This document shows, piece by piece, positions 5,113 to 47,078 of a stretch of 64,000 bases of DNA (the stretch's first letter is position 1; each line of letters opens with the position of its first letter). Origin of the DNA: Clostridia bacterium. GTDB taxonomy: Bacteria > Bacillota > Clostridia > Christensenellales > Aristaeellaceae. The stretch lies in contig JAGBDE010000009.1 of assembly GCA_017937655.1 (NCBI GenBank), positions 5,944 through 69,943 on the forward strand. Direction: 5' to 3'. The notes beneath the pieces were generated by a model that searched no databases, was not told the DNA's origin, and worked only from the letters and a program-made list of their open reading frames with translations. A program made the position numbers and the translations under genes.

Positions 5113-6090
5113 ATGAAATATGCTGTCATATCGGACATACATGGAAACGAGCCGGTGCTTCGGGCTGTCTTGGAAGACGCGCAAAACAGAAAAGTGGACG
5201 GCTTTCTCCTTCTGGGAGACTATTGCCTCAGCCACCCCTTTCCCAACGAATGCGTGGAACTGATCCGTAGCCTGCCAGGCGCACTGGTGGTTTCCGGCAA
5301 CGAAGAAGGGCGGCTTTCTGCCCTTTGCGGCCAGGATCAAAGCACCTGGACAGACGGCCAGATGCAGGTTTCCTACTGGTGTTACCGTACTATGACCCCT
5401 GAGAACATAAACTACATCGGCCATCTGCCCGGCAGGATCGACACCGTGCTGAACGGCGTGCCGGTGCACATGGCCCATTCGTCGGCCGAATTTCTCGGCG
5501 ACTGTGCGCATCATCAGTGGGACGCAGCTTCTCTTGCCCTGCACTGCGGCGAAAGCTTCATTTCCTCCGATCAACGGAAGGAAAAAATCCACCGTTATCT
5601 CAGCAGCAACGAAGCCTTCCAGCGGACCTTGGCCGCCTTACCGGATGGCGTGTACCTTTTTGGACATTCCCATGTACAATGGAGTTACTTAACCCCGGAT
5701 GGCAAAAAGCTTCTGATGAACCCCGGCTCCTGCGGCCTGCCTTTGGATTGTACTCTTGAGGGCGCGCCCTACACCATCCTGGATCTGTCAGAACCTGGCC
5801 ACATCGGTGTGGAGGAGATCCGTCTGCCGGTCAGCCTGGAGAAACAGATTCAAACCATACGGGAAAGCGACCAATACATCCACGCCCAGGTATGGAGCGA
5901 GATCATCATAAAAGAACTGAAAAAGTGCAGAGAACAGATTGTCTTCTTTTTGCAGTTTGTGGAAAGTTACGCAAACCAGATCAGCGACCCGGTTCGGCCT
6001 TATTCCGTCAAAACCTGGGAGGCCGCCTTCCGCCTTTGGAACGGCCCCCAGGCGGGATCCATCCCCGGTGGAAATATTGCGAAAGCGTGA
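5113..6090 (+). CDS. Metallophosphoesterase family protein (cytoplasmic)
   Basis: MKYAVISDIHGN, LLLGDY, GNEE and GHSH motifs of calcineurin-like phosphoesterases. No signal peptide. Confidence 0.75.
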   Translation: MKYAVISDIHGNEPVLRAVLEDAQNRKVDGFLLLGDYCLSHPFPNECVELIRSLPGALVVSGNEEGRLSALCGQDQSTWTDGQMQVSYWCYRTMTPENINYIGHLPGRIDTVLNGVPVHMAHSSAEFLGDCAHHQWDAASLALHCGESFISSDQRKEKIHRYLSSNEAFQRTLAALPDGVYLFGHSHVQWSYLTPDGKKLLMNPGSCGLPLDCTLEGAPYTILDLSEPGHIGVEEIRLPVSLEKQIQTIRESDQYIHAQVWSEIIIKELKKCREQIVFFLQFVESYANQISDPVRPYSVKTWEAAFRLWNGPQAGSIPGGNIAKA

Positions 6091-17432: not shown

Positions 17433-17615
17433 GGAGGCGCAGGAGGCACTGCCTCCTGCCGGGGCTTGGGGCAGCGCCCCAAAATCTCTGCAACTGTCGC
17501 CCAGCCTGCGCCTTCGGCTGGCTGGGCTTTGGGGTTTGCGCTGCGGCGCAGGAGAGGGGGCTCCGCGCCCCCTGACCCAGCGCCAAAGGGCCGTGGGCCC
17601 TTTGGAATCCCTTCT
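17433..17615. repeat. GC-rich multi-hairpin array in the pheST 3' UTR (copy 1 of a modular repeat family)
   Basis: At least 6 consecutive short hairpins: GGAGGCACTGCCTCC, TTGGGGCAGCGCCCCAA, CCAGCC..GGCTGG, TGCGCTGCGGCGCA, GGGGGCTCCGCGCCCCC, AAAGGGCCGTGGGCCCTTT and AATCCCTTCTTGGGATT. The 29-mer CTGCCGGGGCTTGGGGCAGCGCCCCAAAA (17456..17484) is identical to 35660..35688. Confidence 0.8.
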
Positions 17616-35623: not shown

Positions 35624-35629
35624 GCCAAC

Positions 35630-35830
35630 CAATGCGCGGGGTGCAGGGGGATCATCCCCCTGCCGGGGCTTGGGGCAGCGCCCCAAAACCTGCGCCGCAG
35701 CGCAAAAAACCAAAGCACAGCCAGCCGAAGGCGCGCGCTGTGCGACACTTCCAGTCCATTTTGCCTCCGGCGGCCCTGCCGGGGGCCTTCTTTTCTTCTG
35801 AGAAGAAAAGAAGCAAAAGAAGCGCTTTTG
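35630..35830. repeat. GC-rich multi-hairpin array in the SDR gene 3' UTR (copy 2)
   Basis: Shares the 29-mer at 35660..35688 with copy 1. The next ~68 nt (35689..35756) is the reverse complement of copy 1 segment 17485..17552. It ends with the perfect hairpin CTTCTTTTCTTC-TGA-GAAGAAAAGAAG. Confidence 0.8.
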
Positions 35831-37402: not shown

Positions 37403-37452
37403 ACGCCTGTCTGCATCGGGCGATGATTCTTAAAGAACCATTCTCCAACAGC

Positions 37453-37496
37453 AAACACCCGAGCATCCGGTGAACGTGCCGGATGCCCGGGTGTTT
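37453..37496. repeat. Hairpin module R (copy 1); bidirectional terminator-like
   Basis: AAACACCCGAGCATCCGG-TGAACGTG-CCGGATGCCCGGGTGTTT. Its reverse complement shares a 32-nt perfect core with 46546..46589. Confidence 0.85.
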
Positions 37497-37501
37497 ATGT
37501 C

Positions 37502-38878: not shown

Positions 38879-38886
38879 CTTATGTA

Positions 38887-38949
38887 TCCCTTTCATTCTA
38901 TCATAGCAGCACAAAAACCCGCAAGCCTTGGCTGGCTTGCGGGTTCGGG
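38887..38949 (-). repeat. Module L (copy 1): hairpin + T-run + extended -10 promoter TGATAGAAT
   Basis: Minus strand reads CCCGCAAGCC-AGCCAAG-GCTTGCGGG-TTTTTGTGCTGCTATGATAGAATGAAAGGGA. It is nearly identical to plus-strand 45930..45979. It also serves as the glmM operon terminator. Confidence 0.85.
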
Positions 38950-41869: not shown

Positions 41870-42012
41870 CTGATTCAGCAACAAGGGAACCTCTGTTACG
41901 GCATTTCTCCCGCTTTTTCTTTTCCCTCTAACGACGTACTGCACGCCGTGACAGCATCCGCCGAGTCTTTCGATCGCTGCCAACCTCGTCACCCTGAAAG
42001 GGCCTGGCGCTA
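41870..42012 (-). ncRNA. glmS-type GlcN6P-dependent ribozyme (cis-regulatory) in the nagB leader
   Basis: Minus strand from 42011 reads A|GCGCCAGGCCCUUUCAGGGUGACGAGGUUGGCAGCGAUCGAAAGACUCGGCGGAUGCUGUCACGGCGUGCAGUACGUCGUUAGAGGGAA...UUCCCUU. It has the conserved strings AGCGCC, GACGAGG, AUCGAA and CGGCGGAUGC. Pairings are UGGCAGC/GCUGUCA, CGGCGU/ACGUCG and AGGGAA/UUCCCU. Confidence 0.8.
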
Positions 42013-42094
42013 AATATCTTTTTCCTTTATTTTGCCTTCAAAAAACAGCTCCTTCAGCGTTTTGATTTGAAAGGATGCCCAAAAGGCCAGAATC

Positions 42095-45280: not shown

Positions 45281-45867
45281 AGATACTCTTGGTTGCCGAT
45301 AAGGAAAGCCCCTACCTGTGGGATCATTATCAGCCGGGCCGGCTGAAGGACATCGACCTGATCCTTTCCAGCGGCGACCTGAAAGCGGAATACCTCAGCT
45401 TTCTGGTTACCATGTGCACTGCGCCGCTGTTTTACGTTCACGGCAATCACGACGTCAGCTATATGAAGCACCCGCCGGAGGGCTGCACCTGCATTGATGA
45501 CAAGATCGTCACCTTTGGCGGCCTGCGCATTATGGGCATGGGCGGATGCATGCTGTATTCCGGCAAGGATCACCAATACTCCGACGAGCAGATGGAACGC
45601 CGCCTCAAGAAGATGCGCTTTGCCCTGCATCGCTCCAAGGGCGTGGATCTGCTGCTGACCCATGCCCCTGCCCAGGGCCTGGGCGACGGTCAGGACATGT
45701 GCCACCGTGGCTTTCCCGCCTTCCTGCGCTTCATGGACAAGCACCAGCCCAAGTACATGGTGCACGGGCATGTGCACATGAACTACGGCGTGGATGTGCC
45801 CCGGATCCGCCACTATGGCGAAACCACCATCATCAACGCCTGGGAACGGTACATCCTGGAAATCTGA
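45277..45867 (+). CDS. Metallophosphoesterase
   Basis: MKILLVADKESP, SSGDL, VHGNHD and VHGHVH motifs. ATGA overlap with the upstream fusion gene. Confidence 0.8.
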   Translation: MKILLVADKESPYLWDHYQPGRLKDIDLILSSGDLKAEYLSFLVTMCTAPLFYVHGNHDVSYMKHPPEGCTCIDDKIVTFGGLRIMGMGGCMLYSGKDHQYSDEQMERRLKKMRFALHRSKGVDLLLTHAPAQGLGDGQDMCHRGFPAFLRFMDKHQPKYMVHGHVHMNYGVDVPRIRHYGETTIINAWERYILEI

Positions 45868-45925
45868 GCACAAAAAGCCCCCTTCGGAACAGTAAGGGGG
45901 AGTGCGCGGAGGGAGTGATCCTTCC

Positions 45926-45979
45926 CATTGCCGCAAGCCAGCCAAGGCTTGCGGTTTTTTGTGGCGCTATGATAGAATG
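45926..45979 (+). repeat. Module L (copy 2): hairpin + T-run + TGATAGAAT promoter
   Basis: GCCGCAAGCC-AGCCAAG-GCTTGCGG-TTTTTTGTGGCGCTATGATAGAATG. It acts as terminator of the phosphoesterase operon and as promoter for the GNAT cargo. Confidence 0.85.
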
Positions 45980-46017
45980 TCAGCAATAAACTTGGATTTG
46001 TAGAAGGGAACGATAAT

Positions 46018-46461
46018 ATGATACGACATGCAACGATAGCAGATGCATCAAGAATAGCAGAAATATTGATTTTTACAAAGAGAATGAATTATAGAAAGAT
46101 TTTTCAGAATGACAAGGTGTCATTTGGAGAAATGCAAGTATACCCATTGGCAAAAAAATATATTGATCATTCGGATGAATTGGATGGGATATGGGTTTAT
46201 GATGATGAATTTGTTAAAGGAGTAATACATCATGATGGAAAACAGATTGTCGAATTGTATGTTGATTCATTTTTTGAAAATCAAGGGATTGGAAGCAAAC
46301 TGATAAAATATGCTATTGAGCAGTTAGATTGTGATTTTTTATGGGTTCTTGAAAAGAATATAAAGGCAATACGATTTTATCAAAGGCACGGTTTTGTGAT
46401 TACAGAAGAAAAACAATATGAAGAAGGCACAACAGAATATATTGTCAAAATGCAGCGGTAA
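46018..46461 (+). CDS. GNAT family N-acetyltransferase (AT-rich gene, roughly 35 % GC by eye)
   Basis: LYVDSFFENQGIGSKLIKYAIE (QxxGxG motif A) and RFYQRHGF. AAGGGA lies 9 nt before the ATG. Confidence 0.8.
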   Translation: MIRHATIADASRIAEILIFTKRMNYRKIFQNDKVSFGEMQVYPLAKKYIDHSDELDGIWVYDDEFVKGVIHHDGKQIVELYVDSFFENQGIGSKLIKYAIEQLDCDFLWVLEKNIKAIRFYQRHGFVITEEKQYEEGTTEYIVKMQR

Positions 46462-46545
46462 ATTCCAATTTATCGCTCGCGCGAAAAAAAGGATTCCCCC
46501 GCTGTTTGGGGGAGAACGCAATGCATTGCGTTTGTTCATCCGCAT

Positions 46546-46589
46546 AAAAAACCGGGCATCCGGCACGTTCACCGGATGCTCGGTTGTTT
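46546..46589. repeat. Hairpin module R (copy 2)
   Basis: AAAAACCGGGCATCCGG-CACGTTCA-CCGGATGCTCGGTTGTTT is the reverse complement of copy 1 apart from flank differences. Confidence 0.85.
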
Positions 46590-46652
46590 GTAAAAGCATC
46601 AATTGTTCCCTAAAACCCCTCCGCCATCCCGGAGGGTTTTTTCTTTGGCCGA

Positions 46653-47078
46653 TCATTCCTGGGCCTGGAGTTTGCCGTTGACCTGCTTGATCTGCCGGCG
46701 GATAATGCACCAAATAATGAGCCAGATCAGCGCGAAGCCCGCCGCGAAAATGATGGTAAACAGGATCACCGGGCCCAGCTGATTGGGCAGCCAGCCGTTC
46801 ATCAGATACACCAGCAGGTAGTCCAGGTACAAAACGCCGGCGTGGATCAGGATGGCGGTGGCCAGCGGCAGCTTTTCCACCAGGTATATGGCAGAAATCC
46901 CTGCCGCAACAAAAGTCATTACCGTGGAGGACAGGATACCCATGCAAACCTCTTTTACCGTCATGGTTTCCACCACGCCATTCATGCCGAGGATGCCATA
47001 AATGATGGCGATAATCACCGGGCCGCCCCAGGCTGCCACCAGGCCCCGTTTCACAAACTCTGCTGCAAACTTCTTCAT
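46653..47078 (-). CDS. DUF3021-like small membrane protein (4 TM)
   Basis: 141 aa with four hydrophobic segments. ATGA overlap with the upstream LytTR gene. Confidence 0.65.
   Translation of the reverse strand: MKKFAAEFVKRGLVAAWGGPVIIAIIYGILGMNGVVETMTVKEVCMGILSSTVMTFVAAGISAIYLVEKLPLATAILIHAGVLYLDYLLVYLMNGWLPNQLGPVILFTIIFAAGFALIWLIIWCIIRRQIKQVNGKLQAQE

Follow-up and report, generated by a model that had tools for sequence, protein, structure and literature searches.

The 64,000-nucleotide (nt) stretch analysed here (hereafter the window; contig JAGBDE010000009.1 of a Clostridia bacterium, positions 5,944 to 69,943, forward strand) carries, between convergent phosphoesterase and DUF3021 genes, a low-GC islet with a gene for a GNAT N-acetyltransferase. 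An original prediction, made from the letters of the window alone, had described this islet as a cassette framed by two modules, L and R, at 45926-46589, and the GNAT open reading frame (ORF), L, R, a motif near the stop codon (TAAATTCCAATTTATCG, 46459-46475), a small hairpin and a perfect palindrome (AACGCAATGCATTGCGTT) were all found where it had placed them. The frame was indeed common to another islet at 37.5-38.9 kb, with 45931-45988 of the left module being an inverted copy of 38885-38942 (58 nt, 88%) and 46543-46590 of the right module an inverted copy of 37452-37499 (48 nt, 94%). Its limits had to be redrawn, as the islet extends from about 45,890 to 46,627: the conserved left module starts at ~45890 rather than 45926, the right one ends at ~46627 rather than 46589, and L and R represent no more than the inner hairpins of modules that extend further and end in ~30-nt terminal inverted repeats.

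Enclosed by this ~135-nt left module and ~200-nt right module, the GNAT gene shows a GC content of ~32% (0.31-0.34 along it) versus 0.56-0.65 in the flanks and 58% in the genome; variants of it occur at unrelated loci in other organisms, which agrees with the proposed foreign nature of this cargo. The 147-amino-acid (aa) product exceeds the cut-offs of Acetyltransf_1 (PF00583, 43.9 bits; cut-off 20.7), Acetyltransf_7 (PF13508, 45.4 bits) and Acetyltransf_10 (PF13673) in Pfam, and contains the acetyl-CoA motif Q-G-I-G-S-K-L at residues 88-94. No NCBIfam equivalog model, those of the named acetyltransferases (AAC, Sat, PaiA, RimI) included, reached its cut-off with this protein, all scores staying far below (16 bits vs 300 for AAC(3)-XI, 16 vs 380 for Sat4, 31 vs 250 for PaiA), and the closest solved structures in the PDB gave E ~1e-4 only. 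No other ORF of at least 60 aa lies on the promoter strand of the cassette, those on the minus strand overlapping the cargo. A small ORF running through the left module was ruled out, with 1-nt indels between copies breaking its frame and the hairpin covarying.

The ~85 nt between the GNAT stop and module R, which the original prediction had taken for an addition, correspond to the inner half of the right module in the consensus of the family described below (inner repeat, small hairpin and oriT-like core, the last resembling an origin of transfer); the sequence 3' of the stop is AAATTCCAATTTGTCG. This inner half is kept in the GNAT copy and missing from the 37.5-kb islet, and a third islet in the window (35.8-36.3 kb) is a still more eroded copy. 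The palindrome, for which a role as a protein-binding or recombination site had been envisaged, is not a family-wide feature and occurs once in the 2.56-Mb assembly. Its intact counterpart reads CGCAAT(TATACGCACNGTNCCNGT)GCATTGCG, of which the inner 18 nt in parentheses are absent here; on alignment, the palindrome is what an 18-nt deletion left of the oriT-like hairpin, the conserved TTATAC part of the core having gone with it.

A family of single-gene cassettes

Profile hidden Markov models (HMMs) of both modules retrieved 14 paired copies and at least 6 partial ones at contig ends from the 2.56-Mb genome (E 1e-17 to 1e-58). Each of the 14 pairs encloses one gene, different in every copy, the cargo types being GNAT, a 470-aa membrane protein, an APH-type kinase, a MATE pump, an XRE-type membrane protein, a HAD phosphatase, DUF5131 and several unknowns. 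In 33 complete cassettes from this and related genomes, with sizes of 540-2224 bp, cargo GC averaged 0.38 versus 0.57 in the flanks, and 29 carried an extended -10 box (TGnTAnAAT) upstream of the cargo. The distribution is patchy: of the 201 family genomes 12 contain modules, as do 7 of its 72 genera, and copies were also found at 11 loci from other Clostridia metagenome-assembled genomes (MAGs). The parts of the GNAT copy, and their counterparts in the order of the consensus cassette, are compiled in Table 1.

Table 1. Parts of the GNAT copy (window coordinates) alongside the ten consecutive parts of the consensus cassette
Feature	Position	Strand	GNAT copy	Family consensus	Remarks
Host terminator, 5' half	45872..45889	+	A-run, arm GCCCCCTTCGG (45877-45887), two loop nt		Complementary to 46628-46642; duplex -18.7 kcal/mol
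Left terminal inverted repeat / end hairpin	45890..45929	+	CAGTAAGGGGGAGTGCGCGGAGGGAGTGATCCTTCCCATTG, degenerate	1: ~30-nt terminal inverted repeat CAGYGRGGGGGATGGAAAGGAAGGAGTTATCC, folds by itself	Aligns to family consensus CAGYGRGGGGGATGGAAAGGAAGGAGTTATCCTTC
L hairpin	45930..45961	+	GCCGCAAGCC / loop AGCCAA / GGCTTGCGGT + T-run	2: hairpin CCGCAAGCC/GGCTTGCGG + T-run	Called by terminator scan
Extended -10 element	45970..45978	+	TGATAGAAT	3: TGnTAnAAT	18 nt past TTGCGG
Left inner inverted repeat	45984..46000	+	CAATAAACTTGGATTTG	4: CGATAAACTTGAATTTG	14/17 positions complementary to right inner repeat
Cargo	46018..46461	+	GNAT N-acetyltransferase	5: ribosome-binding site, then gene	Pfam
Right inner inverted repeat	46460..46475	+	AAATTCCAATTTATCG, overlaps TAA stop	6: CAAATTCCAATTTGTCG; its TAA often the cargo stop codon	Follows cargo in essentially all cassettes
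Small variable hairpin	46496..46512	+	CCCCC-GCTGTTT-GGGGG	7: small variable hairpin	Counterpart of inverted repeat preceding oriT-like core
OriT-like core remnant	46515..46532	+	18-nt perfect palindrome	8: oriT-like GCGCAATTATACGCACNGTNCCNGTGCATTGCG	Inner 18 nt of consensus gone
R hairpin	46550..46585	+	AACCGGGCATCCGG / CACGTTCA / CCGGATGCTCGGTT	9: hairpin GAGCATCCGG..CCGGATGCTC	Module R of the original prediction
Right terminal inverted repeat	46596..46627	+	GCATCAATTGTTCCCTAAAACCCCTCCGCCAT	10: right terminal repeat GGATAAATTGTTCCTTAAGAATCCTCCCRCCA	
Host terminator, 3' half	46628..46642	+	Arm CCCGGAGGG (46628-46636) + T-run		Complementary to 45877-45887

The left end of the GNAT copy is short of ~17 nt between CATTG and the following hairpin. 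The stems of the L hairpin show compensatory changes between copies, and its 3' arm provides a -35-like TTGCGG (45949-45954), which together with the extended -10 element would form the promoter of the cargo. The small hairpin has the position and form of CCCTCA..TGAGGG in other cassettes and upstream of relaxase genes. Terminator-like hairpins are abundant around the islet (8 in 45700-46800 versus 1.0 +/- 1.2 in shuffles): the R hairpin is terminator-like on the minus strand, a fold of 46540-46645 reaches -25.1 kcal/mol (z -5.97), and the terminator scan also called 46617-46636 plus TTTTTT. In an Rfam E-value scan of 35-47.5 kb, no match fell on the modules, the output being the glmS ribozyme and weak sub-threshold matches only.

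Several side observations were made on the hairpins of this and other copies. The L-hairpin loop (45940-45945) is mirrored among copies, reading AGNCAA in the GNAT copy, the membrane-protein islet, C30 and C31, and TTGNCT in C15, C19, C23, C25 and C13, a pattern that looks like flipping of the whole palindromic hairpin. The glmS ribozyme match is full-length (41873-42022, minus strand; 74 bits, gathering score 37). GC-rich multi-hairpin arrays with a common 29-mer lie in 3' untranslated regions at 35629-35705 and 17436-17569, with a sub-threshold Rfam match to Clostridiales-2 (23 bits vs 58.6), and a cassette on genome contig C6 adjoins an array of that type.

Terminator loops, an empty site and a related mobilisable element

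Outside the conserved ends of every copy lie locus-specific sequences, with an A-run and a T-run, whose left and right parts are complementary. Matched outer flanks pair at a mean of -18.8 kcal/mol versus -11.7 kcal/mol for mismatched ones, a value reached in 0 of 10,000 permutations (p < 1e-4), and these arms therefore predict that a cassette sits in the loop of a host terminator. At a sister cassette on contig C13, between a DUF1667 gene and hrcA, two same-species metagenome contigs were empty and three were filled, with flanks 99.6-100% identical. The empty allele reads ..CCCGGC-G-GCTTTCGCC.. and the filled one ..CCCGGC[AGTGAG...TTGCTA]GCTTTCGCC... The empty site, AAGGCGAAGGCC-CGGC-GGCTTTCGCCTT followed by a T-run, forms a 13-bp stem with a 4-nt loop (-13.4 kcal/mol, z -3.9); the insertion point is the boundary between the loop and the 3' arm, where one G was lost or replaced and no duplication of 2 bp or more is seen. 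Terminator-loop location and, for this sister copy, presence/absence within a species are thereby demonstrated. The empty-site evidence comes from this one site and not from the GNAT locus, and at the C23 and C29 loci the cassette was found in every contig sampled, with no empty allele.

At the GNAT locus, the arms GCCCCCTTCGG and CCCGGAGGG form, in a reconstruction that is weak on its own, the terminator common to the phosphoesterase gene and the DUF3021 gene. The proposed location of the cassettes at operon ends is borne out. The companion proposal, that module L serves as the terminator of the phosphoesterase operon, needs qualification: the phosphoesterase transcript is probably now ended by the L hairpin and its T-run as a consequence of the insertion and not through a shared host element. 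The cassette split the host terminator in its loop and does not merely abut it.

Comparison with relatives answered in part the call for orthologous loci. In seven congeneric species, which are highly diverged at this locus (57% protein identity, downstream synteny lost), the phosphoesterase gene is present with neither GNAT nor DUF3021 downstream; relatives thus do not all carry the GNAT gene with the same flanks, and an uninterrupted phosphoesterase-DUF3021 region was not found. Within the species, all contigs sampled contained the cassette (8/8 when looked up by the phosphoesterase, 6/6 by GNAT). Owing to the 18-nt deletion in its oriT-like hairpin, the GNAT copy is probably immobile, and its presence in all sampled contigs of the species makes it most likely a fixed fossil, predicted still to express an acetyltransferase.

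Weak left-module HMM matches on contigs C34 and C16, together with right-module matches on C34 and C39, led to a 19.5-kb mobilisable element outside the window (C34:15106-34668), which lies between complementary host arms. Both its left end (AAAAAGACCACCCCAAC-CAG-ATGTATGATGTAAAGGAAGGTTTTATCCTTCC) and its right end (AGATAAATTCACCCTTGACAAATCCCTTGCC-CGG-GATGGTCTTTTC) resemble cassette ends, the left-end consensus matching with a genome-wide nhmmer E of 2.7e-4. Its genes specify TnpV, an HTH_17 excisionase-like protein, a large serine recombinase of TnpX-type architecture (Resolvase, Recombinase, Zn_ribbon_recom and DUF4368 in Pfam), DUF3847, a MobA/MobL relaxase and a 4125-aa surface protein; this gene content makes it a regular mobilisable transposon of the same type as Tn4451 and Tn6104. 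Contigs C16 and C39 each hold part of a second, related element; the right end of a second element in genome G087 (on its contig C13) was not found within the contig piece.

The right-module HMM also matched the spacers between DUF3847 and the relaxase (C39, E 5.6e-11; C34, E 5.8e-8, genome-wide). The oriT-like consensus GCGCAATTATACGCACNGTNCCNGTGCATTGCG occurs at 12 places in the genome, including C39, and C34 holds a more diverged copy (recovered by nhmmer and a looser match), both sites lying ~200 nt in front of a MobA/MobL gene. An oriT is usually located in the first intergenic region ahead of the relaxase gene (bioRxiv 10.64898/2026.01.13.699239). An inverted repeat followed by a motif matching GGGCGCAMTTATAC (at most one mismatch) was present upstream of most of 18 related relaxase genes from 13 genera, two of the 18 examined (L067 and L068) being without it. 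Judged from these alignments, both ends and the oriT-like core of the cassettes proved homologous, in the same order, to the ends and the relaxase-upstream region of the C34 element. On account of these shared ends, oriT-like site and order, the cassettes are best read as miniature derivatives of such an element, built around a promoter and one gene.

Proposed mechanism, rival explanations and the inner repeats

Our preferred interpretation, to which we assign a probability of about two thirds (0.68), is that gut Clostridia harbour a family of miniature single-gene cassettes, non-autonomous, integrative and probably mobilisable, of which the GNAT islet is a decayed copy. The serine recombinase of a C34-like element, acting in trans, would excise the cassette as a circle, which it would then place in terminator loops through a crossover at a 2-bp core (AG in the C34 element). 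A relaxase, likewise in trans, would nick the oriT-like site, and a co-resident conjugation system could then transfer the circle. The internal promoter would express the cargo wherever the cassette lands, and the flanking hairpins would restore termination for the host genes. Excision and integration in trans, nicking with transfer, and cargo expression are all steps that we infer from sequence. Cassettes and close recombinase homologues co-occur only in part: genome G087, with many cassettes, has two intact recombinases (604 and 617 aa; 71-72% identity), and several genomes have none. The relaxases of G001 and G047 are 84-86% identical to the C34 relaxase. With incomplete MAGs, such co-occurrence decides little.

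A number of observations weigh against this interpretation. The right-end similarity between cassettes and C34 is weak (11.3 bits in a targeted search, with 0 matches in 200 shuffles), and the C34 recombinase gene has an in-frame TAA at codon 333. No close recombinase homologue was found in the cassette-bearing G001, G047, G117, G127 and G173, and no close relaxase in some cassette-bearing genomes, all of these being incomplete MAGs. An empty allele of the GNAT locus was found neither among the seven congeners nor among same-species contigs, and the rejoined terminator halves of this locus (A and T tracts) fold weakly (-6.7 kcal/mol, z -1.05). A simple sigma-70 scan gave no promoter call at the GNAT cassette, because its -35 matches at 3 of 6 positions only. 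Finally, the junctions are not clean. The left tip follows C-AG in 24 of the 27 cassettes, compared with 1 of 27 for a background window, and the right tip ends in C-A-N, but the C13 empty site has GG where both filled junctions have AG and shows no clean shared dinucleotide, so that a serine recombinase would have to accept one mismatch in the core (AG x GG), which repair or replication would then convert to AG on both sides. Blunt insertion with loss of 1 nt fits the C13 site equally well. A junction rule by which a CA dinucleotide of the target would be shared was refuted at the same site, which has no CA.

The C13 junction also bears on a rival explanation in which the cassettes are moved by a hairpin-targeting DDE transposase (IS1272/TnSha1-like, IS1182 family) and the C34 element by the same enzyme, hence the shared ends. 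The ~30-nt terminal inverted repeats of the cassettes, a target without sequence consensus beyond the hairpin itself, and a hairpin empty site with no duplication and a net loss of 1 nt, as for TnSha1 (PMC4923244), would all suit such an enzyme; however, the C34 element with the same ends has no DDE transposase, its sole recombinase being the large serine recombinase, the genome yielded no insertion sequence (IS) carrying these inverted repeats, and TnSha1 cuts in stems with several nt deleted, while here one nt was lost at the loop edge. We regard this explanation as distinctly unlikely. That the modules are immobile, namely regulatory repeats (terminator, promoter, terminator) around old accessory genes whose low GC stems from composition or selection, is highly improbable. 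The promoter-like box and terminator-like hairpins in the modules, and fixation of the GNAT copy in all contigs of the species, are what it would lead one to expect, but it is contradicted by presence/absence between identical flanks at C13, and the split locus-specific hairpin arms around each copy, the patchy occurrence across genera, the absence of the GNAT cassette from the orthologous locus in congeners, the nesting of one cassette in another and the occurrence of two different cassettes at one left flank in one MAG all speak against it.

The last two cases deserve description in their own right. In L002 (JAFQIB010000049.1, ~2175-2990), a cassette is nested in the L-hairpin loop of a second cassette, and the right host arm of the nested cassette, GGCTTGCTGTTTTT, leads into a further promoter box; hairpins of the elements themselves can therefore be targets, and nested arrays can form. 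Two contigs of the MAG JAZUQI01 (L007 and L011) share the left flank GGACGAAAAAAGAGACGCTTTTCA, followed by different cassettes with different cargo, which reflects strain differences at a single site or else a terminator that was used more than once. On C15 (~6.5-7.1 kb), the right end of the MATE cassette is directly followed by a gene for a 154-aa IS200-like Y1 transposase, which has an end hairpin of its own. The Y1 transposase (TnpA) of the IS200/IS605 family was rejected as the main mover, since members of this family lack inverted ends and have the same kind of hairpin at either end; the adjacency on C15 looks incidental. On C29, a short tyrosine-recombinase-like ORF (46710-46904, minus strand; 199 aa) with 32 bits to the integron-integrase model, far below the cut-off, lies ~280 nt after the right end of the cassette at 45550-46430, whose left end is the nearest of all to that of the large element.

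The cargo also recurs outside this shell. Homologues of the GNAT protein number ~1,900 over several Clostridia families, and variants of 84-98% identity are spread over Ruminococcus, Oscillospiraceae and Lachnospiraceae MAGs. A 98%-identical protein is found at another locus, in a different shell and species, in an organism of 48% GC, and the DNA identity with it (97%) is limited to window positions 45996-46475, from ATTTG to the end of the right inner repeat (TAAATTCCAATTTATCG). One identical GNAT protein variant occurs in at least six unrelated contexts, mostly in genomes of 28-35% GC; these low-GC contexts have no outer shell and keep the extended -10 promoter and both inner repeats. Conversely, the shells of cassettes that differ in cargo are homologous precisely up to the inner repeats (ending after TTTG on the left). 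Downstream of feoA and a dtxR-like gene in low-GC metagenome contigs (L105-L108, L099), a tandem array holds 1, 2 or 5 genes depending on the strain, separated by ~160-nt near-identical promoter-bearing spacers carrying TGTGGTATAAT and each followed by the right inner repeat; the array ends in a DUF5131 gene whose ribosome-binding site lies inside the spacer. Differences between these arrays are bounded by direct repeats of 52-110 nt, and no recombinase is linked to them. The right inner repeat motif has 34 matches in the genome versus 8 in a shuffle, and in other genomes (AAATTCCAATTTGTCGA matches, L109-L188) it is followed by at least four recurrent downstream modules, including one of ~100 nt (CTGAATAGGCGTTAAGCGTTGGTGTGATTTTGGTGCAAATTTGGTGCAAC...) and a second oriT-like type (GGGCGCACTTCTATACAC...), many at contig ends. 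To judge from these alignments, the gene between the inner repeats is thus an independently exchangeable unit.

These data are the ground for a further rival, an integron-like system in which the gene between the inner repeats is the unit, the repeat pair with its promoter spacer is attC-like, and the outer shell is one of several vehicles. The confinement of the 97% identity to the unit, the recurrence of the identical protein, the strain-variable gene number with a repeat after each gene, the exact end of shell homology at the repeats and the variety of modules downstream of the 17-mer in gut Clostridia would all follow from it. Nevertheless, apart from the arrays having no linked recombinase, the genome has no integron integrase (best TIGR02249 score 40 bits vs a cut-off of 265), the repeats do not show the attC R/L box consensus, homologous recombination between the direct repeats could produce the array differences, and ~70 chance matches to the 17-mer are expected in the collection searched, so that the match count alone proves little. 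As an account of the islet, such a system is unlikely in our judgement. Homologous recombination between spacers can explain gene loss from arrays; it does not explain the arrival of new genes between the same repeats. A further conjecture, which we hold only tentatively and consider rather improbable, is that the inner 17-nt repeats form an independent layer of gene exchange in gut Clostridia, with single genes, from just before the ribosome-binding site to the stop codon, being swapped between promoter-bearing "sockets" in mini-element shells, strain-variable tandem arrays and conjugative elements. A site-specific recombinase might carry out this swap by double exchange at the two inverted sites or through an attC-like hairpin of the repeat pair. 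If true, such a layer would amount to a functional equivalent of the integron in Gram-positive bacteria, with each cassette providing for its own expression.

Comparison with known systems and significance

Returning to the cassettes as mobilisable derivatives, a full-text literature search returned no published description of such units, which is not proof that none exists. Tn4451 and Tn6104 carry tnpV, a large serine recombinase and mobA/mobL, with a 2-bp flanking repeat that is also present in the circle and the empty site (PMC3158075), and IME_Rho_tet, a related gut family, has a serine recombinase, a relaxase and 21-bp inverted ends (PMC12904643). The cassettes share end sequences, an oriT-like region and the order of parts with the C34 member of the Tn4451/Tn4453/Tn6104 group, which offers precedent for 2-bp flanking repeats, circular intermediates and inverted ends. 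Unlike its members, they encode no recombinase, relaxase or TnpV, measure 0.5-2.2 kb with one passenger gene and an internal promoter, reach ~20 copies per genome, and target terminator loops without a sequence consensus. As for the defining features of the group, the oriT-like sequence is present in intact cassettes and internally deleted in the GNAT copy, with no relaxase gene, and at the place expected for the 2-bp repeat, the left junction has AG in 24 of 27 copies and the right one A-N, with GG in the sole empty site where both filled junctions have AG.

In MIC231 of Bacillus cereus, a mobile insertion cassette (MIC) is mobilised by the transposase of IS231A. Like MICs and miniature inverted-repeat transposable elements, the cassettes are non-autonomous, multicopy and provided with passenger genes and with the inverted ends of an autonomous element, their ends being homologous to those of C34 with no recombinase inside. 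In contrast, their parent is a mobilisable element with a serine recombinase and not an insertion sequence, the C13 filled/empty pair shows no target duplication of 2 bp or more, and the oriT-like site and the promoter belong to the cassette shell.

Integron cassettes are usually promoterless and expressed from Pc, and their attC sites contain the boxes RYYYAAC ... GTTRRRY (R''/L''..L'/R'). The present units resemble them in holding single, mostly small accessory genes (acetyltransferases, phosphotransferases, unknowns), in imperfect inverted repeats that abut the stop codon and in having related units in strain-variable arrays. They differ in that each has its own promoter and is scattered singly in terminators of the host genome. 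A classical attC was ruled out, neither module having RYYYAAC or GTTRRRY boxes, and in place of IntI the genome holds generic tyrosine recombinases only.

With regard to the target, TnSha1/IS1272 elements of staphylococci make blunt cuts in terminator hairpins through an IS1182-family DDE enzyme, with no target duplication and a small target deletion (PMC4923244). Both they and the cassettes use confirmed or predicted terminator hairpins without primary sequence preference, without duplication and with slight loss of the target, whereas TnSha1 uses a DDE transposase, cuts in the stem and carries its own IS. The cassettes lack defining features of each of the established classes: they are not integrative mobilisable elements (no recombinase or relaxase), not MICs (no duplication, no IS parent) and not integron cassettes (no IntI, no attC).

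If our interpretation is correct, a mobilisable element has been pared down in gut Clostridia to the cis-acting sites, which surround a single self-expressed gene, and parking in terminator loops would make its insertion nearly harmless. This would explain the single spread of low-GC accessory genes, such as acetyltransferases and phosphotransferases, into high-GC genomes, with ~20 copies in a 2.6-Mb genome amounting to a visible share of genome plasticity. The ends and the recombinase might constitute a natural structure-targeted integration system with potential as a tool. For annotation, the modules break MAG assemblies and create orphan islets that would otherwise go unexplained.

A related concept is that of iOriT elements, which are integrative, carry oriT only and hitch on conjugative elements (bioRxiv 10.64898/2026.01.13.699239), a notion similar to that of cis-mobilisable elements (CIMEs; PMC5704250). 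Like these, the cassettes keep cis-acting sites and would borrow relaxase and mating machinery from helpers; they differ in also being without an integrase and in being up to ten times smaller. In a 2026 survey of integrative hitchers, sizes were almost always above 4 kb, an integrase lay within 2 kb in 92% of cases, and serine recombinases accounted for <1% of the integrases (bioRxiv 10.64898/2026.01.13.699239). Against this background, in which almost none below 4 kb was found, the cassettes would, if the interpretation holds, be smaller than any other known gene vehicle that integrates and can potentially be transferred by conjugation.

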